Shown one piece after another: positions 3,612 to 39,944 of a stretch of 40,107 bases of DNA. Location: positions 1 through 40,107 of the IMG/VR virus record IMGVR_UViG_3300045988_075043; one strand, 5' to 3'. The position numbers and the translations under genes were made by a program. This DNA is from a virus. A model generated the notes under the pieces. The model was given only the letters and a program-made list of their open reading frames with translations, was not told where the DNA came from and made no database searches. Each line of letters starts with the position of its first letter. Position 1 is the first letter of the stretch.

Positions 3612-3934
3612 GCGTTATTCACCCCCAGAGCAACTTCGATTTCAGTCAACGCAGATTCATATTCGGCATTCTGAGCAACAACCGTCTGGTATTGCTCCCG
3701 CTCATACTCCCGCTGGGCGGCGTCTAACTCTGCCCACGGCTTCCACGGGGCAATCATCTCACCGGTGAACACCACGCCATCGGCACGCGTCCACGTCTGG
3801 CCCGCTGGGATGAAGCGATAGCCCTGAATATAAATATTGCACTTATCGTCGAAGGCATCCGTTTCAATCTGCGTCAGCCCCTCAGCGGTGGAGGTGTGGC
3901 ACTTAAAGCTGGAATCTATGTAAATCGTTTTCAT
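3608..3934 (-). CDS. Hypothetical protein (108 aa), fibre/lysis junction
   Basis: SD TAGGAGG plus ATG. Clean composition. No family recognised. Confidence 0.65.
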   Translation of the reverse strand: MKTIYIDSSFKCHTSTAEGLTQIETDAFDDKCNIYIQGYRFIPAGQTWTRADGVVFTGEMIAPWKPWAELDAAQREYEREQYQTVVAQNAEYESALTEIEVALGVNNA

Positions 3935-11214: not shown

Positions 11215-11306
11215 TGGCGGAACAGGCAGGACTCGAACCTGCACACCGGAATCCATCGGTGAACGGATTAGCAATCCGCCGCAGTACCTGTTATGCTTAC
11301 TGTCCC
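11215..11306 (-). tRNA. tRNA-Ser (anticodon GCU), class II with long variable arm, CCA encoded
   Basis: Hand-folded. Acceptor GGGACAG/CTGTTCC, anticodon loop TTGCTAA, variable-arm stem CACCG/CGGTG, T-arm GCAGG-TTCGAGT-CCTGC. Confidence 0.85.
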
Positions 11307-11311
11307 GTATT

Positions 11312-11387
11312 TGGTGCTGGTGGCTGGGGTCGAACCAGCTCCCTGCGCCTTATCACGACGCCGCTCCGCCTGTTGAGCTACACCAGC
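11312..11387 (-). tRNA. tRNA-Ile (anticodon GAU), CCA encoded
   Basis: Hand-folded. Acceptor GCTGGTG/CACCAGC, D stem GCTC/GAGC, anticodon loop GTGATAA, T-arm GCTGG-TTCGACC-CCAGC. Confidence 0.85.
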
Positions 11388-14297: not shown

Positions 14298-17200
14298 TCA
14301 CACAAGTTTCCCTTTATACAGCTTGTAGAACATCTGCGCTTCCTCGCTGGAATACCCCAGCGCCACCCATGCGGCGATCATGTCCGCCTTCTTGGTGAAC
14401 TCCTGAGTGACTCCATAGGTCTGCGTAAACTGCTCCGCGGAATACCCCCTGCCCCGGAGATAGGCATACTTGAGTTCCGTCTTGTTGGGCTTCTCTGCCT
14501 CGGGGTCATAGTCCGGCATATACAGCAGCATGACCCTGTCTTTTTCCTTGTCGCTCAGGCCGTCCAGCGCCGCGATATAGCCCCATTTGTCCCGGTTGGT
14601 AACGGTGGCCTCCCCTGTGTCCTTGTCCACGCTGCCGGTGCCCTGAAGGTCAGCAAGCCCCTTAATGATCCGGTCTGCCACGTCGGAGGAAAGCCCGGAT
14701 TCCGTCATGGCGTCGAACTTCTCCGTTTCAATGGGGAATGTCTGCCGGAAAACCATCTTGTCCTTGAGGGCGTCGTGGGCGGCCTTGGTGATCTGGCCGG
14801 ATTCATAGGCATTTCCCAGTGTCCGCGCCCATTCCTGCGCCTTGTCCTTTCCGGCCATCCCGGAATTGCCGTCCAGATTCTTGTAAACCCCGTACAGGCT
14901 TGCAAACGTCTCACCGCTTACGCCGTTCTCCCTGGCGGTTATGTAGTACCCGATTCTGCCGCCGGTGCCGTTCTTAAATTCCTGCTTCTGGGCTTTCCCC
15001 AGGGATTCATAAATGCTGTAGGCCTGCCCCAGCGCCTCCGGCTCCATGGTGTCGAACGCCTTGGAAAATTCCGATCTCACCAAATCCTGCATAATGCTGT
15101 TTTCCACGGTTTTAGCGTCCTTCGGGCTGTCCGTCGTGTAATCGGAAACCGCCGCCCGGGCGTGTTCCGTGGCGTAGGTCTTCGCCCGGTTCAGGGCATT
15201 CGCTTTCTGCTCGTCCGAAAGATTCCGGAATGCTTCACTGCCCATCAGCCCGGTGTAATAGCTGCTCACCAGCTCGCCATAGGTCTTTTGGTAGGTTTCC
15301 CTTGCCTCGCCGTCCAGATTGACCGTCTCACCGTTTACATGGATAGACATGGGTGCCTGTCTGTCCGGGATAAAGCTGGTGTCACCGTCAAGGCTCCCGC
15401 TCAGTTCTTCCAGATAGTTTGTCACGTCGTTCTTGCGGTAAGTCTGGGTTTTCGTCGGGTCGACAAACGTATTGAAGAACCCGCCCCGCTCCTGCGCCTC
15501 TCCCAGTCCGCTGTATTTCTTCGGAAGGGTCTGGGACAGGAACGGAAGTCCGGCGATGATGTTGTTTATGGCATACTCCGCCGAGGTCTCCCCCCGGGTG
15601 TCCCTGTAGTATCCGTCGGTAAGCTGTGCCGTCTGCCTGACAAACTGCGGAATAAAGCTGCCGGCGGTATCTCCGGCATACCCGGCCAGTTCGTCCATTA
15701 TGCCGGAAGCATCGTCCGCTTCAACAACACCGCTTATTAAATCAACCCCACCGGACAAGCCGGTCATCATGGGGCTGTCCATCAGAGAATTGAACACAGA
15801 TTTCACGGTTGCAAACGGATACGCTTTCAGCATGTCGGCAACGCTGTCCTCTTTGGAAAGCTCATACCCGAGATATAGCTGGGTATTGAACGGCTCCAGG
15901 AAGTCCAGGCTTGTGATAATGTCCCCGTCCTGCCATTCCGAACTCCCGCCGTCCAGTCCTCTTTTGAGGGCGCTCCAATTGATTTGTGCGCCGCTTCTCC
16001 CTTCGGCCTGTAAAAGTGCCTTTTCGTCCTTGTCCTTCGGCTCATTGACCTTTACAACGCCGGTTGCAGCCGCCGCTGTAAACATGGCAATCATTCCGAC
16101 GCCGCTTAAGCCCCGGCCAAAGTCGGAAGCTACCTGCCTCTGCCGGGCAACGTCGATTTCCTTTCCGGCTTTCGCATCCTTTATGAGGGAAATAGCTTCC
16201 CCGACGCTCTTAACAACGCCCGCCGAATAGTCAATGCCCGTCTGGGTCACGTTCATAGGCACCGACGCGAACGGAATCACGGCATCTACTGCGGCTTCTC
16301 CCGGTTTCCCGAAAATATCCCCTGCGCCTCTTTTGAACCCCGCCGCCGCTCTGGAAAGATCAGAGCCACGAGTTTTGCCGTCGCTGTCTTTCCATGTTGC
16401 ATCCTTGAATGTCCGCCGGTTCGCGGTGAATTCGCTCAGCTGCGCGATCTGTTCCTCTGTAAGGTTCGCATTTTTCAGGTTGTTCAGGCTTTCGGAAATC
16501 GCCGCATTCGTTCCGCCCTCAAAGATTTTGTCCGTTACCTCAAGGTTGTAGCTCATATACTTCTGGAATGCGTACATGGCGCGCATAGCAACGTTGCCGG
16601 TGGAGCGGAAAGTCCTGCCCATGTATTTCCCGCTGCCGCCGTCGCCCATAGCTGTGGAAAGGGAGGCGCCCGCGCCCGTTTCAATCGGGATGTTCAGCTC
16701 CACACACAGCGACGCGAAGCTTGCCGCGTCCGCTGCGCCTTTTGCATAGGCCTTCACATTCTTGAAGTCGTTTCCCACAGTCTTCCGGCCTGTGAACTTA
16801 GACAGAACCGCATCCATCATCCTTCCGCCGGTGCTGTCGCTTGCGGAATCCATCAGCCCACCGAAGGAGTTGCCCGTGATATTTCTTGCAAACGTTTTAA
16901 GGCTTGCAAGCATATTCTGTTTCCGGATTCCCATGGCAATTTCCGTCTTCGTCCGCGCCCGGAAATCATCCGACATTGCCGCGATCTGGGCGTTTGCAAC
17001 CGTCTTAAGGTCGTCAAAATCCATTTTCCCAAGAATCCGTTCTGCTGTTCCTGTCAGATTCTGAGATGTGCCGAACCACGCCGTTGTATTCCTTTCCCTG
17101 GCGATCTGGCGGATAATGTCCCGCATTCCTGCGCTGTCTCCGTCATCCACCAATTCAACCGCAATTGCAATCCGGTCAATATTTTTTGCTATGTCCTTCT

Positions 17201-20200
17201 GCCACTGCTTGTAGGTTTCTCCGCCTTCCTTCTGCCGGAATGTGGAATCCTCCCGCTTCATGTCAAGAATGGCGTTCCGTGCCCGTTGCGCGGCGGTCAT
17301 TGAATCCTGCAAATCTGCCATTGTCCCGGAAATGGCGAATGCCTGCGTGACCTGTCCGGCGTTCGTCCCGATTTCCCGGATTTTCATATTCATTTCCGTG
17401 ATCTGGTTCTGTGCGCCGTCAATTTCAGAGTGTACCAGATTCTTGGTCACATATTTGGCGGTCAAAAGGTCTTCCGCCGTCCATGCGTCCTTACCCATAA
17501 GGTAGTCATATTCCGCCTGAACCTTTTCCGGGGTACTGGTTCTTTCCTTTGCCGTGGCCGTGGTGTCCGCGTTGTGCTTGACGTCGTAAATTCCGGCATC
17601 CGGGTTTCCCTTGACCATCTGCTTATAGCCCTGCCGGATGTCCGCGTCCTTGCTGTGAAGTCCGGTGTTGCTTACCGTCCGCGATACTTCCAAATCCCCG
17701 GACGGCTCATTCTGCATTCCCACCGTGTCCACAGACTGTCCGCCCCCCGTGGACTTCCCGGAACTGTCCTCCACCTGTGGACTGCTCTTTCCCATCAGGG
17801 AATCCCGGTAGGCCAAGGCGGCGTCATAGTCGTTCTTGCCGTAGGTGGGCAGTGCCGCCAGCTGGTCATCCGTGATCTTCGGGTAAGTACCCATCTTTTG
17901 GGCGACGGTGTCCGCGCTGTCCCCGTTGTGCTTCATCACGTAGATGTACGGCTCGCCCTTGTCCGGCGTCCACCCCTCGTTGGCGTAGGTCTTGTTGAAC
18001 TCCACCCTTGCCACCGGTTCAAAGCCATATTTGGCGTAGAGTTTCGCAAGCCCTTCCCCGTAGCAGTCCAGCCGGTCGCCGCCCTGCTCAATGGCAATGG
18101 GCATCATGGTGTCAAGGGCTTTCGGGGGCCCTCCGTTCTTGTTCTTGAAAACCGCCACAATGTCCCCGTCCGGAGCAATACCCACGCCCACCGTTCCGTT
18201 GTCGTTCATGAAGGTTCGGACGTTGCCGTCTTTCAGCTGCTGGGCGGATTTCGGCGTAACGCACCAGCCGTTTGCCGGGTCGGAGTTTCGCCCTGCGGTC
18301 AACGCCTGCTCATAGCTTACCGGGTCGGCGGTGGTGTCCCTTACGGCATAAGTCGGTGTTCCCCGCTGCCTCTGGGCTTCCTGTAATTTGTCGCTTACGC
18401 GAAGCTCTCCAGAAACTCGTAGGTCATTTTGAGAAGCGCCGCCTCCGGATTCTCCTTGTACGCCTCCCGGAACCACTTGGGTTCCCGCTTCCATTCCTCC
18501 GGGTGCTTGTCCAGATACTGGCAATGCTCCCGTGTCTGCTCCAGAAACCCGTTCGGTTCCAGTTCCTCCGGGTAGTCCCGTTCCATCAGTGCCTTGTAAT
18601 CCCGTTCCATTTTCCGTACCTCCCTGTATCGGATTCCCGTTAATAGCATTATAATTCCCGTCAGTGCCGGTGTCAACGCCCAGAACCCGGTCAAAGGCAT
18701 TTTGCACCGCCTGCCGTTCCGGCGTGACCTCCGGCGTTTCCTGCCTTGCAGGCGCTCTTTCCGCCAGCTCCTGCCCCATGTCCTCGATCAGGCTCTGCGC
18801 CCCCTCCCGGTTCAGGGTTGTGGTGGCGGTGTCCCCGGCCAGCTGCCGGACGGCTGCCTTTACCGCGTTCCGCTTCTCCGACGCCGTGGCCATTTGGGAC
18901 AGGTCAAGCCCCGTCTGCCGGGAAAGCTGCTCCATGGCTGCCGGGTCTGAAAGAATCTTCTCCACGGTCTTGTTGCTCACGTTCCCCGTTTCCGCCAGCT
19001 TGTCCAGTGCGTTTGTGAGCGCATTCCCCACCTGTGGTGTCCCTGCCGCCTCCGCATCAGGGCTTTGTGCTTTCGTGGTGTCAGTGGACGTTTCCGGTGA
19101 AATCCCCGCCTGTGGGTTCCCTGCGGTCTCCTGCGCGTTCTGAGAGGCATTCGTCTTTGCCTCTGCCCTTGCAACGGCATTGCTGTACACGATAGCAGTA
19201 AGGCCGGACAGACCGCCGGACAGACCGGAGACAAAGGCGGTTTCCTTTGCCTCGTCCACGATGGCCTTGGCCGCCGCCGCTTTCGCATCGGCGTAGGAAT
19301 AGCCGTCAACCACAAGCTGCTGAATGGCCCGGTTGTACTCGCTCTTTTCCTGTAGAATGGCCGCTTCGGCAAGGGTGCTGCCAACCAGGCTCGCTTCTTC
19401 CTCGCTGATCTCCACACCGGCCTGACCGATGGTGTTCAGCAGGAACTTGGTCAAATCCTTGGTAGCCCCCGCCTTGGCCTTGTCCAGCAGCTTGTCCATG
19501 GATACCTTTTCCGTCAGGACTTCCAGTATGGCGTTGACCGTGCCCATGCCGTAGGCCTGGGCAGGGGTAGCGCCCTTCTGGGTGGCTTCCCGGACACCGG
19601 ACGCAAAGGAATCCATAGCAACCGCGCCAAGGGAGGCGGTGGGACCCAGGACAGCCAGCCGGGTCAGGGAATCCGCCGTGGACATAGCCGCCTGATAGCC
19701 GTAGCCCAAAGCGTTTCTTACGACGTTGTCCCCTTCGCCCACGATATTCTTTCCGGTTTCCTCCCGGACTGCGTCGTAGTAGATGGAAGCAAGGTCATTC
19801 GACCGCACCGGTTCAAGCGTGGGATACCGCTTGGGACTAATGAGTTCGCCCACTCTGCCCATGAATGCGTTCGGCGTATTCAACAGCTTGCCGCCAACGG
19901 ATTCTATGCTCTTTCCAATGGCTCCGGGTACGGTAGACACATCCTCGGCGGCTTTCGCCATTTTCTCCTCCGCCTGCCGCTCATGAAGATCCCATGAGTA
20001 GGCGGCAACCATGGCGTCGAAGGCATCCCTGCCGTACTTGTCCACCAGAGGTTGACTCGCCTTGTCCATTCGGGTTGCCGCAAGTAAGGAAGAACCGCCG
20101 CTTCCGAAATGTGCCCAGAAATTTTCGGATATATCTTTGTTCTCGACATAATCCGCCAGCAATTTCCGGTCTTCCTCCGGGAGAGCGTTCACCTTCGCCA

Positions 20201-20624
20201 TATCCTGCTGGCGCATACGGGCGGTAATGGCTTTTTCCTGTTCGTTTTTCCAATAATCCGCCTTAGCTTTCAGCCCCTTGGATGTTTCGTCCTCGAATAC
20301 CTCCGTCATCTGCGGCGCATTCCGGGGAACCTCCGACATGGGAGTATTCCGCGTCAGCTTTGTCGCCGCCTCCTGCTTGCGCTGCTGGAACTCCTGAGAA
20401 TTCACATAGTCGTCATACTCTTTCTGGGCAAGAGCCGCGTTTTTCCTGTAACCTATGGCCTCATTGTCAAGCGCGACCAGAGCGTCCCGGTATTCCCGCT
20501 GCGATTTCTCCCTCTCCACCGGATTGTATGTGCCGCTGAGCTTTTTCACGGACTGCACCCGTTGATATTCCCTATTCGCTTTCTCCCTGATCTTCCCCCA
20601 TGATTCGTCCTTCGTAACCGCCAT
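14298..20624 (-). CDS. Giant virion/ejection (polyvalent-type) protein, 2108 aa, with a GNAT-fold-like segment
   Basis: SD AGGAGG plus ATG at 20624. Uninterrupted ORF. Residues of about 785-900 (nt about 17925-18270) read ...DRLDCYGEGLAKLYAKYGFEPVARVEFNKTYANEGW. One TM-like stretch, GVGMIAMFTAAAATGVV. Confidence 0.75.
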   Translation of the reverse strand: MAVTKDESWGKIREKANREYQRVQSVKKLSGTYNPVEREKSQREYRDALVALDNEAIGYRKNAALAQKEYDDYVNSQEFQQRKQEAATKLTRNTPMSEVPRNAPQMTEVFEDETSKGLKAKADYWKNEQEKAITARMRQQDMAKVNALPEEDRKLLADYVENKDISENFWAHFGSGGSSLLAATRMDKASQPLVDKYGRDAFDAMVAAYSWDLHERQAEEKMAKAAEDVSTVPGAIGKSIESVGGKLLNTPNAFMGRVGELISPKRYPTLEPVRSNDLASIYYDAVREETGKNIVGEGDNVVRNALGYGYQAAMSTADSLTRLAVLGPTASLGAVAMDSFASGVREATQKGATPAQAYGMGTVNAILEVLTEKVSMDKLLDKAKAGATKDLTKFLLNTIGQAGVEISEEEASLVGSTLAEAAILQEKSEYNRAIQQLVVDGYSYADAKAAAAKAIVDEAKETAFVSGLSGGLSGLTAIVYSNAVARAEAKTNASQNAQETAGNPQAGISPETSTDTTKAQSPDAEAAGTPQVGNALTNALDKLAETGNVSNKTVEKILSDPAAMEQLSRQTGLDLSQMATASEKRNAVKAAVRQLAGDTATTTLNREGAQSLIEDMGQELAERAPARQETPEVTPERQAVQNAFDRVLGVDTGTDGNYNAINGNPIQGGTENGTGLQGTDGTGLPGGTGTERVSGADTGALPVSGQAPGGMEAGTQVVPGGVQGESGGGASQNDLRVSGELRVSDKLQEAQRQRGTPTYAVRDTTADPVSYEQALTAGRNSDPANGWCVTPKSAQQLKDGNVRTFMNDNGTVGVGIAPDGDIVAVFKNKNGGPPKALDTMMPIAIEQGGDRLDCYGEGLAKLYAKYGFEPVARVEFNKTYANEGWTPDKGEPYIYVMKHNGDSADTVAQKMGTYPKITDDQLAALPTYGKNDYDAALAYRDSLMGKSSPQVEDSSGKSTGGGQSVDTVGMQNEPSGDLEVSRTVSNTGLHSKDADIRQGYKQMVKGNPDAGIYDVKHNADTTATAKERTSTPEKVQAEYDYLMGKDAWTAEDLLTAKYVTKNLVHSEIDGAQNQITEMNMKIREIGTNAGQVTQAFAISGTMADLQDSMTAAQRARNAILDMKREDSTFRQKEGGETYKQWQKDIAKNIDRIAIAVELVDDGDSAGMRDIIRQIARERNTTAWFGTSQNLTGTAERILGKMDFDDLKTVANAQIAAMSDDFRARTKTEIAMGIRKQNMLASLKTFARNITGNSFGGLMDSASDSTGGRMMDAVLSKFTGRKTVGNDFKNVKAYAKGAADAASFASLCVELNIPIETGAGASLSTAMGDGGSGKYMGRTFRSTGNVAMRAMYAFQKYMSYNLEVTDKIFEGGTNAAISESLNNLKNANLTEEQIAQLSEFTANRRTFKDATWKDSDGKTRGSDLSRAAAGFKRGAGDIFGKPGEAAVDAVIPFASVPMNVTQTGIDYSAGVVKSVGEAISLIKDAKAGKEIDVARQRQVASDFGRGLSGVGMIAMFTAAAATGVVKVNEPKDKDEKALLQAEGRSGAQINWSALKRGLDGGSSEWQDGDIITSLDFLEPFNTQLYLGYELSKEDSVADMLKAYPFATVKSVFNSLMDSPMMTGLSGGVDLISGVVEADDASGIMDELAGYAGDTAGSFIPQFVRQTAQLTDGYYRDTRGETSAEYAINNIIAGLPFLSQTLPKKYSGLGEAQERGGFFNTFVDPTKTQTYRKNDVTNYLEELSGSLDGDTSFIPDRQAPMSIHVNGETVNLDGEARETYQKTYGELVSSYYTGLMGSEAFRNLSDEQKANALNRAKTYATEHARAAVSDYTTDSPKDAKTVENSIMQDLVRSEFSKAFDTMEPEALGQAYSIYESLGKAQKQEFKNGTGGRIGYYITARENGVSGETFASLYGVYKNLDGNSGMAGKDKAQEWARTLGNAYESGQITKAAHDALKDKMVFRQTFPIETEKFDAMTESGLSSDVADRIIKGLADLQGTGSVDKDTGEATVTNRDKWGYIAALDGLSDKEKDRVMLLYMPDYDPEAEKPNKTELKYAYLRGRGYSAEQFTQTYGVTQEFTKKADMIAAWVALGYSSEEAQMFYKLYKGKLV
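18395..18610 (-). CDS. Nested +1-frame gene inside the giant ORF (71 aa, acidic/aromatic helical)
   Basis: GGAGG (18619-18623), 8 nt, then ATG at 18610; TAA at 18395-18397. Hand-counted GC3 is about 77% in this frame against about 31% in the overlapping long-ORF frame. Confidence 0.6.
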   Translation of the reverse strand: MERDYKALMERDYPEELEPNGFLEQTREHCQYLDKHPEEWKREPKWFREAYKENPEAALLKMTYEFLESFA

Positions 20625-36303: not shown

Positions 36304-37164
36304 ATGACCCAGTTAAAAGCTCCAACCACATACGAGCAGCAGCTTGATATTCTGCGTGGCCGTAATGTTCTGGTAGACAATAGTGAAAAGTGCCTTTCTG
36401 TTTTGGAAAGCGTAAATTACTATCGTTTTGTTGCGTACTTCTTGCCGTTTAAGCAGTCTGACGGAAATTACCGTGACGGAACGAATTTCCAAACGGTGTA
36501 TCGTATTTATGAATTTGATCGGAAACTGCGCGGTATATTGTTTGCAGCTCTGGAAGAAGTCGAAATATTCATCCGTGCGAAGCTCGCCTATTTTCACGCC
36601 CACAAATACGGCGCGGAGGGATACCTAAACGCAGATAATTTCTCTAAGTTTCACGATGCTGAAAAATTCAAGGAGAACCTGGATCGTGAAATATCAAGCA
36701 ACAAACGCTCTGCGTTTGTGATCCATCATCAACGTCAATATGGTGGTCATTTCCCGATATGGGTCATTGTTGAGCTGTTCACCTTTGGCATGTTGTCTCG
36801 GTTCTACGGAGACTTGACAACGGCAGATCAAAAGAAGATATCAAGAGAGCTGTATGGGACAATCCCTAAAAATATGAATAGCTGGCTTCGATGCTGTACA
36901 GATTTGCGGAACATTTGCGCCCACTATGGACGGCTGTATTACCGTGTGTTTTCCGCAACTCCCGCCGGAGTAAGTGCAAAAGAGCCAGAGATCAACAGAT
37001 TGTGGGGTGCCACGCTTGCGTTAAGATCTCTATATCCCGACAGGCAGAAATGGAATACAGAAATTCTTCCGCAGTTGTCTTCCCTGATTGAGAGATATCA
37101 GGATGATATTAGCCTATTACATATAGGATTCCCTGACGACTGGGAGAAAACATTGACATTCTAA
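36304..37164 (+). CDS. Abi_2 (AbiD/AbiF-like) abortive-infection protein (286 aa)
   Basis: QQLDILRGRNVLV...VNYYRFVAYFLPF...YEFDRKLRGILFAALEEVEIFIR...RNICAHYGRLY. Low-GC insert. Confidence 0.8.
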   Translation: MTQLKAPTTYEQQLDILRGRNVLVDNSEKCLSVLESVNYYRFVAYFLPFKQSDGNYRDGTNFQTVYRIYEFDRKLRGILFAALEEVEIFIRAKLAYFHAHKYGAEGYLNADNFSKFHDAEKFKENLDREISSNKRSAFVIHHQRQYGGHFPIWVIVELFTFGMLSRFYGDLTTADQKKISRELYGTIPKNMNSWLRCCTDLRNICAHYGRLYYRVFSATPAGVSAKEPEINRLWGATLALRSLYPDRQKWNTEILPQLSSLIERYQDDISLLHIGFPDDWEKTLTF

Positions 37165-37187: not shown

Positions 37188-37346
37188 GGTCTAGACCTGC
37201 AATGATTTGCTCGTAGAGCGCGAGCAGCATAATCAAAAGAAAGCTCAATTAGTGCGTGATGGGTATCGTCATCGCACGGTCTTATTCAACCCTTGGGTTA
37301 GGACTCCCACCTTTCGGGATGTTCCGACCTCAAGGGTTTATTTTTT
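37188..37346 (+). ncRNA. Candidate ~160-nt structured ncRNA (promoter to intrinsic terminator, no credible ORF)
   Basis: Hairpins: TGCTCG/CGAGCA (37208-37226), GTGCG..TGA/TCA..CGCAC (37252-37277), and a long terminal stem AACCCTTG (37288-37295)/CAAGGGTT (37331-37338) followed by TTATTTTTT. Confidence 0.5.
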
Positions 37347-37544
37347 GGGCGGGATAGACGCCCCGCCACCCGTGCCACAAGGTGACGGGGCTTTGCCGCC
37401 GGTAACGACGTGTGTCCCTTGCCGGTTGCAATACCACCATACACCCCACACAGGCGTTTCGTAAAGCCCCAGATGTGAAATTCCCGTTCCATTTTCGCAA
37501 CAATCGTTCCATATGTGAAACATTCCGTTTTTGGAGGCGGTTTT

Positions 37545-37985
37545 ATGAATATTTCCGAGCATTTATCAGAATTGGAAGCCCTACGGAAGGAGCGGGGCAT
37601 GTCCCAGCAGGAGCTGGCAGAAACCTGCGGCGTATCCAAGGCCACGATCTGCCGCGCCCTGAATGGTGCGACGGAGCCGACGGCAAGGCTTGTGCAGAGC
37701 ATTGAGGCCGCCGTGCAGTACACCCCGGAGGAACCCCCGGTGCTACCCGCCCCCGGCCAGTCCATGGAGGAATATGTGGAATATCTTCAGGCAACGATCA
37801 TCCGCCAGAGCGAGGACTACAGGCGGCACACCATGCAGCTGCAAACGCACTACAGCCTTCTCAACCGCCAGAACCGCCGGGTGATTCTGATTATGGGCAT
37901 TTCCATTGCGGTGCTGGTAATCTTCCTAGTAGGCTGGCTCATCTTCGATATCATGCACCCGGGAACCGGATGGATTCAAAGGTAA
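37545..37985 (+). CDS. Membrane-anchored XRE-family HTH protein (146 aa)
   Basis: SD GGAGG plus ATG. RKERGMSQQELAETCGVSKATICRALNG. C-terminal TM VILIMGISIAVLVIFLVGWLIF. Confidence 0.7.
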   Translation: MNISEHLSELEALRKERGMSQQELAETCGVSKATICRALNGATEPTARLVQSIEAAVQYTPEEPPVLPAPGQSMEEYVEYLQATIIRQSEDYRRHTMQLQTHYSLLNRQNRRVILIMGISIAVLVIFLVGWLIFDIMHPGTGWIQR

Positions 37986-38039
37986 GATAAATTTTTACGA
38001 TTGTCGGAAATATTTTTCCGTTTTTGGTCAATCTGTCTA

Positions 38040-38068
38040 TTGCTATTTTCCATTTCTCGGGGTACAAT
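38040..38068 (+). promoter_or_regulatory. Promoter of the type III TA-like locus
   Basis: TTGCTA (38040-38045), 17 nt, TACAAT (38063-38068). Confidence 0.55.
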
Positions 38069-38125
38069 GTAGACGTAGGATAACCACCTACGCTATATAG
38101 ACGACGTTCATCGTCCGCCCTAATT

Positions 38126-38220
38126 TGCCGCCTGCCGAGAGCGGGATATAAGACTTCGGCTTGTTGTAAGACTGCCGCTTGCCGGGAGCGGGATACAAAA
38201 CTCCGGCCTGAAAATGCCGG
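38126..38220 (+). ncRNA. Tandem imperfect repeats (~2.3 units, period ~42-47 nt): candidate type III antitoxin RNA
   Basis: TGCCGCCTGCCGAGAGCGGGATATAAGACTTCGGC (38126-38160) against TGCCGCTTGCCGGGAGCGGGATACAAAACTCCGGC (38173-38207). The A/T to G/C changes keep the GCCGR...YCGGC pairing. A partial third unit starts at 38215. Confidence 0.55.
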
Positions 38221-38253
38221 ACTGGCCGCCATGCCGGTTCGGCATTCTTTTTT
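38213..38253 (+). terminator. Terminator/attenuator between the repeat RNA and the toxin gene
   Basis: CGGCATT (38240-38246) can pair with AATGCCG (38213-38219) or with ATGCCG (38231-38236). It is followed by CTTTTTT. Confidence 0.6.
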
Positions 38254-38265
38254 GGGGGATAACAA

Positions 38266-38745
38266 ATGACAGAGATACAGGACTCCGGAATATACATAAT
38301 CCGTGATGCTTTCTTTGAAAAATACGGGAACAACCGCTATATGAAGAATAAGCAGGAGAGCCGCCCCCACTACTACGCTATGGCGGACAAATCCGGTGTC
38401 CTATGGATGGTTCCAATGAGTACCAACGTAGATAAATACAAGCGGCTGATATATGAAAGTGAGAGGCGGCACGGCTCCGGAAACTGCGTGCATTACCTCA
38501 TAGCGCCGATATACGGAAAAGACAGGGCTTTTATTATCTGCGATATGTTCCCCGTCCTCCCGGAACATGTACTACGCCCATACAATATCAACAATGTGCC
38601 TTATGTTTTGGAAAACAAAAATATAAAGAAAAACATCCGTGTAAAAGCGCTTGCCTACTTGAACATGGTTGAACGTGGGGTTCTACATAGTCCGTTAAAT
38701 ATTATCGAAACCAAGGCCGCGTTGCTCAAAAGCAGAAAGAACTAG
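38266..38745 (+). CDS. ToxN/AbiQ/CptN-like type III toxin (endoribonuclease) candidate (159 aa)
   Basis: GIYIIRDAFFEKY...RPHYYAM...GVLWMVPMST... and FIICDMFPV parallel the ToxN layout (FYTISSKYIEYL...YLAPLTS...MIPI). The context (repeats plus terminator upstream) fits. Confidence 0.6.
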   Translation: MTEIQDSGIYIIRDAFFEKYGNNRYMKNKQESRPHYYAMADKSGVLWMVPMSTNVDKYKRLIYESERRHGSGNCVHYLIAPIYGKDRAFIICDMFPVLPEHVLRPYNINNVPYVLENKNIKKNIRVKALAYLNMVERGVLHSPLNIIETKAALLKSRKN

Positions 38746-38817
38746 AGGACGGAATGGGCAGCCGCCGCCCTTGTTAGGAGATGTGGGAGTGTCGCCCCAC
38801 CTAGTTCTCAAAAACAG

Positions 38818-38849
38818 TGGCAGACCGTTTCGGCGGTCTGCCATTTTTT
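38818..38849 (+). terminator. Intrinsic terminator upstream of int
   Basis: 10-bp stem TGGCAGACCG/CGGTCTGCCA followed by TTTTTT. Confidence 0.7.
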
Positions 38850-38876: not shown

Positions 38877-39944
38877 ATGGGAAAAAGAAAGAAGGAGCCG
38901 GAAATCAGGCTCCCCAAAATTAAGCAGCTCCCCTCAGGGGCGTGGAGAACGCGCATTTACATCGACGGCCGCACGGTATCCATCACGAAGCCAACATACG
39001 ACGAATGCGCGGCGGAATACCTCGCCATGAAGCACGGGGTCATTGAAGCGAAAGCCACCCCCATGAAGCGCGGGGTGCCGCTGGGGGACGCCCTCGACAA
39101 ATACATTTCGACCCGGAAGGGGTTCAAGTCGCCGTCAACGATTTATGCGTATGAATCCTACCGCAAGCAACGGTTCCAAAGCATGATGGGGGCTGACGTG
39201 TACACCACCACGGACGAACAGTGGCAAGCCGCCATCCGCAGGGAAGCAAAATCGATGTCCCCGAAATATATCAAAAACGTGTGGATGCTGATTTCCGCAG
39301 CGATATTCGAGGAAACCGGACACAGGCCGCGGGTGACCCTGCCGGAAAAGGAACACAACGAAAAGCCGTACCTTGATCCGGATCAGATACCGGTGTTCCT
39401 GCAAGCCATAAAAGGGGAATCGATAGAAATTGCCGCCCTGCTGGAATTATCCAGCTTGCGCAGGTCTGAGATGCTGGCGCTGACATGGGACAAGGTCGAT
39501 TTCAAGAACGAAATAATATATGTCCACGGGGCAAGAGTTGCCGGGGACGGCGGCAAGCTGGTTCACAAGAAGCAGAATAAAAACGATTCCTCCCGGCGCA
39601 CGGTTCCGATTATTGAGCCGCTGATGGAAGCACTAAAGGCAGTTGATAACAAGGAAGGCTATGTCGTCAACCTGACCGGCGGGTGGATATGCACAAGGAT
39701 AAACGAGATTTGTTCCGCCAACGGCCTGCCGAAAGTCGGGAACCACGGATTGCGGCACAGCTTCGCGTCTCTGGCTTATCACCTCCAGATACCGGAAAAG
39801 ATAGCAATGGAAATTGGCGGGTGGGCAGATGACGGGACGATGCACAAAATATATACACATCTGGCACAGAAAGACATTGCAAAACGGGCGCAGGATTTTC
39901 GGAACTTCTTTGTGTCAAATGCGGATAAAAAAGCACAAATTTGA
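38877..39944 (+). CDS. int: Tyrosine site-specific integrase (355 aa)
   Basis: SD AAGGGGG plus ATG at 38877. LSSLRRSEMLAL (Arg), HGLRHSFAS (H-x-x-R), and GGW...MHKIYTHL (catalytic Tyr). Confidence 0.9.
   Translation: MGKRKKEPEIRLPKIKQLPSGAWRTRIYIDGRTVSITKPTYDECAAEYLAMKHGVIEAKATPMKRGVPLGDALDKYISTRKGFKSPSTIYAYESYRKQRFQSMMGADVYTTTDEQWQAAIRREAKSMSPKYIKNVWMLISAAIFEETGHRPRVTLPEKEHNEKPYLDPDQIPVFLQAIKGESIEIAALLELSSLRRSEMLALTWDKVDFKNEIIYVHGARVAGDGGKLVHKKQNKNDSSRRTVPIIEPLMEALKAVDNKEGYVVNLTGGWICTRINEICSANGLPKVGNHGLRHSFASLAYHLQIPEKIAMEIGGWADDGTMHKIYTHLAQKDIAKRAQDFRNFFVSNADKKAQI

Follow-up and report, generated by a model that had tools for sequence, protein, structure and literature searches.

A probable CptIN-type toxin-antitoxin module with covarying, non-identical antitoxin repeats among the lysogeny genes of a temperate phage from the human gut

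What kind of system is encoded by a viral locus in which a few imperfect repeats lie between a promoter and a small open reading frame (ORF), and is that system likely to be functional? This question is raised by positions 38,040 to 38,745 of the IMG/VR virus record IMGVR_UViG_3300045988_075043, which was analyzed here over its positions 1 to 40,107 (40,107 nucleotides, one strand; hereinafter, the window). The initial annotation, made without database searches, described a type III toxin-antitoxin (TA)-like layout, with a promoter, tandem-repeat RNA, an attenuating terminator and a 159-aa ORF resembling ToxN/AbiQ-type endoribonucleases. All four elements are indeed present, the ORF at 38266-38745, and judging from comparative sequence analysis, the locus is very probably a functional type III TA module of the CptIN family that a ~40-kb temperate phage of the human gut carries within its lysogeny region. 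The profile and fold of the toxin, the length and number of the repeats, the terminator, and the register and covariation of the antitoxin pseudoknot all agree with this family.

Type III families are defined by the sequence of the toxin (PMC3401426), and by this measure the gene at 38266..38745 (+), which we denote cptN, is predicted to encode a CptN-family endoribonuclease toxin. The 159-aa protein scores 109.8 bits against the NCBIfam equivalog model for CptIN, NF047359 (cut-off 90; E 1e-31; 140 of 159 residues covered), and phmmer aligns residues 7-144 with CptN of Eubacterium rectale (CptN_Er; PDB 4RMO_A) at E 1.5e-23. The AlphaFold2 model of the protein, built on nine relatives, has a predicted local distance difference test score (pLDDT) of 88.2, and its top Foldseek match in the PDB is again 4RMO_A (template modeling, TM, scores 0.82/0.84; root-mean-square deviation 2.5 A over 157 columns), a Kid/MazF-like structure with a twisted beta-sheet core and four helices. 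MazF and CcdB folds come next, and AbiQ reaches a TM score of 0.61 (E 0.04), so that CptN replaces the ToxN/AbiQ-type toxin initially proposed. Scans of the toxin against Pfam, ToxN included, and PADLOC yielded, respectively, nothing beyond noise at E<=1 and no model match, so that the ORF is not a ToxN/AbiQ-profile protein; both blanks are explained by the absence of the CptN family from those libraries. Superfamily membership, as initially suspected, is established by the profile search through the CptIN model. The protein also matches phrog_33519 (E 1e-36), listed by PHROGs as a family of unknown function, and its database entry, DAQ21102.1, reads 'hypothetical protein [Caudoviricetes sp.]'; the present analysis assigns a function to this entry and to PHROG family 33519. 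An exhaustive HMMER search detected 571 cluster representatives at E<=1e-3, among which a single one is more than 50% identical to the query, indicating that the window toxin belongs to a small sub-clade of a broad family.

Loci encoding homologous toxins, 38-68% identical to the window protein, were taken from Logan, ENA and IMG/VR assemblies and are referred to below by numbers with the prefix L. All of these loci share one order of elements, in which the promoter is followed by two leader hairpins, then by one or two repeats, the terminator and the toxin gene. The toxins of two of the loci, L052 (503-1006; P0003) and L053 (312-815; P0004), consist of 167 aa and carry unrelated C-terminal extensions, that of L052 being due to the ORF reading into the sequence of a skipping-rope RNA (see below).

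The window contains two direct repeats, at 38126-38163 and 38173-38210, which are spaced by 47 nt and are 84% identical over 38 nt. Over the core of the repeats, 30 of the 35 positions are identical, so that the five differences reported initially are confirmed; with T38126 as position 1 of the unit, they fall at positions 7, 13, 24, 27 and 31. When 38069-38265 was shuffled 1000 times with its dinucleotides preserved, the best self-match of a 35-mer averaged 17.9 identical positions (standard deviation 1.2) and never exceeded 24. We accordingly delineate two 47-nt CptI antitoxin units, repeat 1 at 38126..38172 (+) and repeat 2 at 38173..38219 (+), on the basis of repeat identity, pair counts and alignment to the antitoxin of E. 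rectale (CptI_Er). Of the approximately 2.3 repeats initially counted, the two full copies stand, whereas the remaining third of a copy is only a ~20-nt resemblance (GACTGGCCGCCATGCCGG) with two indels, a vestigial partial third repeat that makes up the terminator's 5' arm and loop. A trivial explanation would be that a chance duplication happened to arise upstream of an unrelated small ORF, and the lack of a Tandem Repeats Finder call at the locus, like the empty Pfam and PADLOC scans, might seem to favor it. The missing call, however, reflects the presence of only two diverged copies, none of the shuffles reaches the observed identity, across loci the repeats show conservation as well as covariation, and the ORF passes the curated CptIN model; we regard this explanation as already refuted.

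The best characterized CptI RNA, CptI_Er, comprises two genomic 45-nt repeats, each folding into an H-type pseudoknot with a 1-nt loop L1, a 9-nt A-rich loop L2 and an extended A-minor twist; a single repeat suffices for rescue and acts in trans (PMC4627078). We recovered the CptI_Er unit (AAGUUUACCACUGACCGAUAUGUGGUAUAUAAAUGGUCGGGUUGA) from a mutagenesis primer in Table 2 of the same publication and aligned it, using MAFFT, with 24 distinct units from 11 homologous loci; a single 1-nt gap was required. In the resulting register, stem S1 pairs C3-C6 (CCGC) with G16-G19 (GCGG), stem S2 pairs G9-R13 (GCCGR) with Y31-C35 (YCGGC), and L2 consists of the 11 nt G20-U30 (GAUAYAARACU). The GCCGR...YCGGC pairing noticed initially is thus real, but instead of a simple hairpin it forms S2 of a predicted H-type pseudoknot. 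In repeat 1, S1 is formed by 38128-38131 (CCGC) with 38141-38144 (GCGG), S2 by 38134-38138 (GCCGA) with 38156-38160 (TCGGC), and L2 by 38145-38155 (GATATAAGACT); the corresponding elements of repeat 2 are 38175-38178 with 38188-38191, 38181-38185 (GCCGG) with 38203-38207 (CCGGC), and 38192-38202 (GATACAAAACT), all on the plus strand. The L2 motif AUAUAA is shared with CptI_Er, where it aligns with A27-A32; the essential A29 of CptI_Er corresponds to an invariant A, and its kink nucleotide U30 to the only column of the loop with free variation, any of U, C, A and G being found there. The A-minor contacts of the window units are predicted from this alignment.

The pseudoknot was assessed by explicit pair counts. 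Among 21 units, 98.9% of the cells are paired, and among 25 units including CptI_Er, 98.7%; when the 3' partner is slid as a control, the respective fractions drop to 23-49% and 23-48%. Three pairs, all in S2, show double changes in the 21-unit set, and four of the nine do so in the 25-unit set, three in S2 and one in S1; in both sets, the covariation score was reached by none of 500 shuffles. The S2 stem occurs as GCCGA/UCGGC, GCCGG/CCGGC, GUCGG/CCGAC, GGCAC/GUGUC and GGCAU/GUGUC. Its fifth pair, which the initial annotation singled out as compensatory between A38138/T38156 of repeat 1 and G38185/C38203 of repeat 2 and took as a sign of a selected RNA structure, is G-C in 12 units, A-U in 7, C-G in 3 and U-G in 1. 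The window taken alone gives this idea weak support, given that, by our own arithmetic, about 0.05 compensatory pairs are expected among five random differences; the decisive support comes from the double changes in the units of the other loci. In the ~42 contigs of the window type, repeat 1 invariably has A-U at this pair and repeat 2 has G-C, and no half-compensated state was seen. In effect, nature has mutagenized the CptI pseudoknot in this clade: any compensated pair is tolerated in S2, and the equivalent of U30 varies freely, whereas the A-minor adenines and S1 are frozen, in agreement with the crystal structure and the mutants of CptI_Er.

The same framework places the five differences between the window repeats: position 7 lies at the border of S1 and L1, positions 13 and 31 form the compensated S2 pair, position 24 is the equivalent of the flipped-out kink U30, and position 27 is in the loop. 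Across the clade, the cores of the two repeats within a locus share between 27/35 and 34/35 positions, so that non-identity is the rule in this group, in contrast to the published cptI repeats, which are described as nearly identical (PMC12283969). Non-identical, separately evolved repeats within one array were previously thought unusual for cptIN, and to this extent the repeats are as unusually divergent as the initial annotation held; they are not unusually few, given that cptI repeats span 40-48 nt in 1.9-3.4 copies (mean 2.4) family-wide (PMC3401426, Table 2). Two loci, L046 (1061-1223) and L047, possess a single full CptI repeat, compared to two in their close sister L048, and appear to be natural one-repeat cptIN systems, consistent with one repeat being sufficient.

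CptN of E. rectale cuts the antitoxin precursor after A45, leaving a cyclic phosphate, and forms a 2:2 complex with the products (PMC4627078). In the internal linkers of the present clade, the sole invariant nucleotide is an A equivalent to A38169, found in the contexts UAA^GAC, CAA^GAC, UGA^AUC, UCA^GAC and CAA^ACU, and by analogy with the scissile A45 we predict that the toxin cuts 3' of A38169. Such a cut would leave a 5-nt 5' tail ahead of S1, compared to 6 nt in CptI_Er. The linker that follows the last repeat, YUGAAAA (UUGCAAAG; CTGAAAA after repeat 2), resembles the CptI_Er cut site, UUGA^AAG.

Several observations weigh against a fully functional CptIN module. In some lineages, the 5' flank of repeat 1 lacks the conserved A, so that the 5' processing of the first unit is uncertain and its 5' end may stay unprocessed. 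The S1 stem is invariant within the clade, and its only covariation is therefore the single difference between G-C in the clade and A-U in CptI_Er. Furthermore, the tested CptIN systems provided E. coli with no protection against coliphages (PMC3401426, PMC4627078), leaving an anti-phage role unproven for the family. In the toxin itself, conservation of the active site is only partial compared to CptN_Er, in which it includes a Ser-Ser/Thr-Arg triad, Tyr104, and the adenine-specifying Asp81 and Ser85. The residue aligned with R53 of CptN_Er is N54 in the window protein, and Y and R occupy the places of D81 and S85; with these equivalents changed, cleavage specificity may differ and activity is not guaranteed. 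It could be argued from these substitutions that catalysis has been lost and that the divergence of the repeats, which are less alike (30/35) than the nearly identical ones of published cptIN loci, reflects relaxed selection on a decaying or inactive remnant. Such a remnant appears improbable given the pattern of conservation. In a 32-sequence alignment including CptN_Er, S52, T53, R33 and Y106 (the counterpart of Tyr104) all fall in conserved columns, R33 corresponding to an Arg that is nearly invariant family-wide, and the R53 column itself is occupied by R, K, Q, N or H throughout the family, N, Q, K and H being common. More than 40 independent contigs carry the full-length ORF at 96-100% identity, with the exact protein DAQ21102.1 seen on 84 contigs, and the repeats differ only at structurally tolerant or compensated positions, again with no half-compensated variant. 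We retain the functional CptIN module as the preferred interpretation.

The elements that surround the repeats are conserved as well. A sigma-70-like promoter, predicted in the initial annotation and found by a consensus scan at 38040..38068 (+), consists of the -35 box TTGCTA (38040-38045), a 17-nt spacer and the -10 box TACAAT (38063-38068). It is followed by two leader hairpins identified in the minimum free energy (MFE) fold, the 5'-terminal hairpin A at 38069..38096 (+), with a core stem formed by 38074-38079 and 38087-38092, and hairpin B (GACGA/TCGTC) at 38100..38115 (+). Comparison of the window leader (38069-38115) with those of L001, L003, L048, L049, L051, L052, L053, L056 and L084 showed that, in all nine homologous lineages, a -10 box is located ~200 nt from the toxin ATG, at a nearly constant distance (~197-215 nt), usually with a TTGAC-like -35 box at 17 nt. 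Similarly, in 9/9 lineages, a hairpin begins 3-6 nt past the -10 box, its sequence unlike from one lineage to another (stems UGCGGA/UCCGCA, UGCAGA/UCUGCA and CGUAGG/CCUACG), and a second hairpin with differing stem sequences occupies the place of hairpin B. Hairpin A most likely acts as a 5' stabilizer against 5'-end-dependent decay, an idea based on what is generally known of mRNA decay in Firmicutes. Immediately upstream of the promoter, the window encodes an HTH_3 protein whose C-terminal segment is hydrophobic (VILIMGISIAVLVIFLVGWLIF; 37515-37985, plus strand), apparently a membrane-anchored XRE-type regulator, and a similar helix-turn-helix (HTH) gene precedes locus L005. In L003, three tandem 11-nt units (ACACTTAGGTA; 3706-3745), ~50 nt upstream of the cptI promoter, may represent an operator or a repressor-binding array.

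Between the antitoxin and the toxin, a pattern scan and the MFE fold identify a Rho-independent terminator at 38213..38253 (+), with a 14-bp hairpin (38213-38246) and a T-run (38248-38253); the toxin ORF starts downstream of a Shine-Dalgarno-like GGGGGA (38254..38259, plus strand), read from the sequence 6 nt upstream of the ATG. The terminator hairpin is kept, with compensatory changes, in nine lineages (RNAalifold columns 162-196); applied to whole leaders, RNAalifold paired repeat 1 with repeat 2, and because the program cannot model pseudoknots, only the terminator columns of its output were used. A shorter alternative hairpin, 38231-38245, employs the same 3' arm and also precedes the T-run, so that the two alternative 5' partners noted initially were both recovered by the pattern scan, the longer hairpin being the MFE structure. 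These two partners, together with the potential of UCCGGC of repeat 2 (38202-38207) to pair with GCCGGA (38216-38221) in the 5' arm of the terminator, raise the alternative that the main role of the repeats is that of a cis attenuation leader, one that switches among pseudoknot, anti-terminator and terminator, and not that of an antitoxin acting in trans; the RNA antitoxin RCd22 of AbiF, after all, works in cis as well as in trans (PMC12373285). Comparative data make this highly improbable. In L052 and L053, the S2 strand reads CCGAC while the terminator arm remains GCCGGA or GCCGAA, that is, covariation does not preserve the required pairing, and we rejected the anti-terminator switch between the repeat-2 S2 strand and the terminator arm on these grounds. 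The same T-run follows both terminator conformers, both of which would thus be expected to terminate, so that no switch is supported, and a single repeat of the homologous CptI_Er RNA is active in trans. An antisense ORF of 139 aa (37951-38370) that extends across the leader was discarded as spurious because this region is conserved in the manner of RNA stems and varies in length from lineage to lineage. Rfam contains no CptI family, and its ctRNA_pGA1 and PtaRNA1 models give weak matches in the terminator region, below the gathering scores, which are attributable to the terminator hairpin.

The genomic context of the module is that of a temperate phage. The window encodes a P22-like portal protein, a large terminase, HTH repressors and an Abi_2 protein, and the cptN module adjoins the gene for a tyrosine integrase (38877-39944). 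The homologous modules are flanked by genes for integrases or serine recombinases, by holin/amidase (lysis) genes, or by cI/antirepressor genes, and loci nearly identical to that of the window are found on ~40-kb IMG/VR viral contigs and on human-gut metagenome contigs. A tblastn search (E<=1e-3) of 50,697 GenBank phage records detected no homologue of CptN, nor do these records contain a near match at the DNA level; distant relatives with 29-34% identity, annotated as hypothetical, are encoded on 13 plasmids. Two peptide patterns produced 66 matches in 185,579 species-representative genomes, with no confirmed relative of the toxin clade, and a word-indexed protein search retrieved only 8 relatives; so far, the clade has been seen in metagenomic and viral assemblies alone. 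Each of the 33 cptIN loci known in 2012 was classed as chromosomal (PMC3401426), and in 2025, toxIN and tenpIN alone were reported in phages (PMC12283969); the present result puts cptIN on temperate phages of the human gut. Elsewhere in the window, the phage carries tRNA-Ser(GCT) and tRNA-Ile(GAT) genes (11215-11387, minus strand) and a single 2108-aa ORF (14298-20624, minus strand), probably for a tail or tape-measure-type protein.

By extension from the ToxIN/CptIN paradigm, the following mode of action can be proposed for the module. A constitutive sigma-70-type promoter would drive transcription of a ~190-nt leader in which two 5' hairpins precede the two 47-nt CptI repeats and the strong terminator. 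Most transcripts would end at this terminator, so that the antitoxin RNA is expected to outnumber the toxin mRNA, with CptN being produced by read-through. Each repeat would fold into an H-type pseudoknot in which the 11-nt A-rich loop GAUAYAARACU lies in the minor groove of S1, and CptN, a putative endoribonuclease of the Kid/MazF fold, would cleave the precursor in the single-stranded linkers, with predicted cuts 3' of the invariant A38169 and within the GAAAA tract past repeat 2. The toxin would remain bound to the ~45-47-nt products in a closed, inactive ring of two proteins and two RNAs, as in E. rectale. When transcription of the locus halts, upon loss of the prophage, shut-off of the host or infection by another phage, the labile RNA would decay, and the released CptN could cleave cellular or phage RNA, resulting in growth arrest. 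The module may thus contribute to retention of the prophage, exclusion of other phages, or both.

The neighborhood of the module includes two further structured RNAs. A skipping-rope RNA (Rfam RF02924; 57.8 bits, gathering score 36.7) at 38738..38808 (+) overlaps the stop codon of cptN and is followed by a terminator of 13 pairs and a T-run at 38816..38845 (+), detected by the pattern scan, that closes the cptN/skipping-rope transcript. The skipping-rope RNA may be part of the 3' untranslated region of cptN, and its membership in the module is uncertain. To our knowledge, no function has been assigned to skipping-rope, an orphan class of structured RNAs. This RNA likewise occurs after cptN in L052 (967-1037), L084 (926-1003, minus strand) and L064 (996-1073, minus strand), that is, in three cptIN lineages, L084 and L064 representing the third, and it is absent at the six other cptIN lineages examined. 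Two pattern scans of IMG/VR produced 161 skipping-rope loci; all 15 loci that were re-tested pass the Rfam gathering score. In 119 of the 161, an ORF of at least 80 aa on the same strand ends no more than 250 nt upstream of the RNA, and these upstream ORFs include 47 PBECR3 nucleases (median pairwise identity 35%), 6 CptN, 3 Abi_2 and 2 DUF3644 proteins. These raw neighbor counts suggest a link between skipping-rope and RNase-type toxins. For this RNA, Weinberg et al. have noted a 'compelling association', left unexplained, with a nearby protein (PMC5737381). We also considered whether skipping-rope is generally linked to recombinase genes but dropped the idea since L084 has no recombinase downstream. 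It is conceivable, although in our estimate rather unlikely, that skipping-rope is a functional third component, a 3' partner of phage-borne RNase toxins, in which case it may act as a regulator, a second antitoxin or a decoy. In a related scenario, a heterotypic 2:2 ring might be formed by the two non-identical CptI species.

Located 1.1 kb upstream of cptIN is an Abi_2/AbiF-family gene (36304-37164, plus strand; Pfam E 1e-51), and 39 nt past its stop codon, a 6A RNA (Rfam RF02925; 68 bits) at 37203-37253 (+). The known AbiF antitoxin RNAs, the abiF motif and RCd22, lie upstream of the gene and belong to a different family, so that 6A could be another RNA partner of Abi_2. The region thus resembles a small island of RNA-dependent toxin systems, with Abi_2 followed by 6A RNA, CptIN and skipping-rope, and could offer a good starting point for experiments on two orphan RNA classes.

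Comparison with the known systems delineates what is shared and what is new. One comparison is to AbiF (Abi_2) with RCd22 or the abiF-motif RNA (PMC12373285), which likewise pairs a prophage-borne RNA antitoxin with a protein toxin but involves an unrelated HEPN-type toxin and an unrelated hairpin-motif RNA with no processing between the motifs. ToxIN of Pectobacterium and Bacillus and AbiQ/antiQ share with the window locus the toxin-processed repeat RNA, the pseudoknot antitoxin, a terminator that sets the RNA to protein ratio and, distantly, the toxin superfold; they differ in that the window toxin matches no Pfam profile and shows the modest structural similarity to AbiQ given above, and in their antitoxins, which contain 2.8-5.5 copies of a 34-36-nt unit and assemble into 3:3 triangular complexes. 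In TenpIN, also of type III, the repeats are few and long (39-57 nt), and non-identical repeats with covarying stems as well as virus-borne copies were reported for it in 2025 (PMC12283969), but its toxin is of another family, the window toxin passing the CptIN model and not TenpN.

The closest counterparts are the validated CptIN systems of gut Firmicutes. Those of Ruminococcus torques L2-14 and Coprococcus catus GD/7 belong to the same family, the validated toxins being 35-44% identical among themselves, with antitoxicity confined to cognate pairs (PMC3401426, PMC4627078). CptIN of E. rectale (PDB 4RMO; PMC4627078) has the same succession of promoter, two tandem repeats, terminator and toxin, with a toxin that is about 30-35% identical to that of the window and has the same fold (TM 0.82). 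The antitoxins share the pseudoknot register, the S2 core CCGA/UCGG, the AUAUAA of L2, the 11-nt gap between the 3' strands of S1 and S2, and an A-rich cut-site context (UUGA^AAG, compared to CUGAAAA and GUAA^GAC in the window). The differences are that the unit is 45 nt long in E. rectale and 47 nt in the window, S1 is CCAC/GUGG rather than CCGC/GCGG, S2-5' and S1-3' are separated by 3 nt rather than 2, and R53, D81 and S85 of the toxin are replaced by N, Y and R; furthermore, the window repeats are non-identical (30/35), the E. rectale locus is annotated as chromosomal whereas that of the window is phage-carried, and the window locus has the conserved two-hairpin leader and the downstream skipping-rope RNA. 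In general, the system described here is one already known, CptIN, to which the present locus adds three modestly new features: carriage by phages, non-identical repeats that evolve separately, and a conserved two-hairpin leader.

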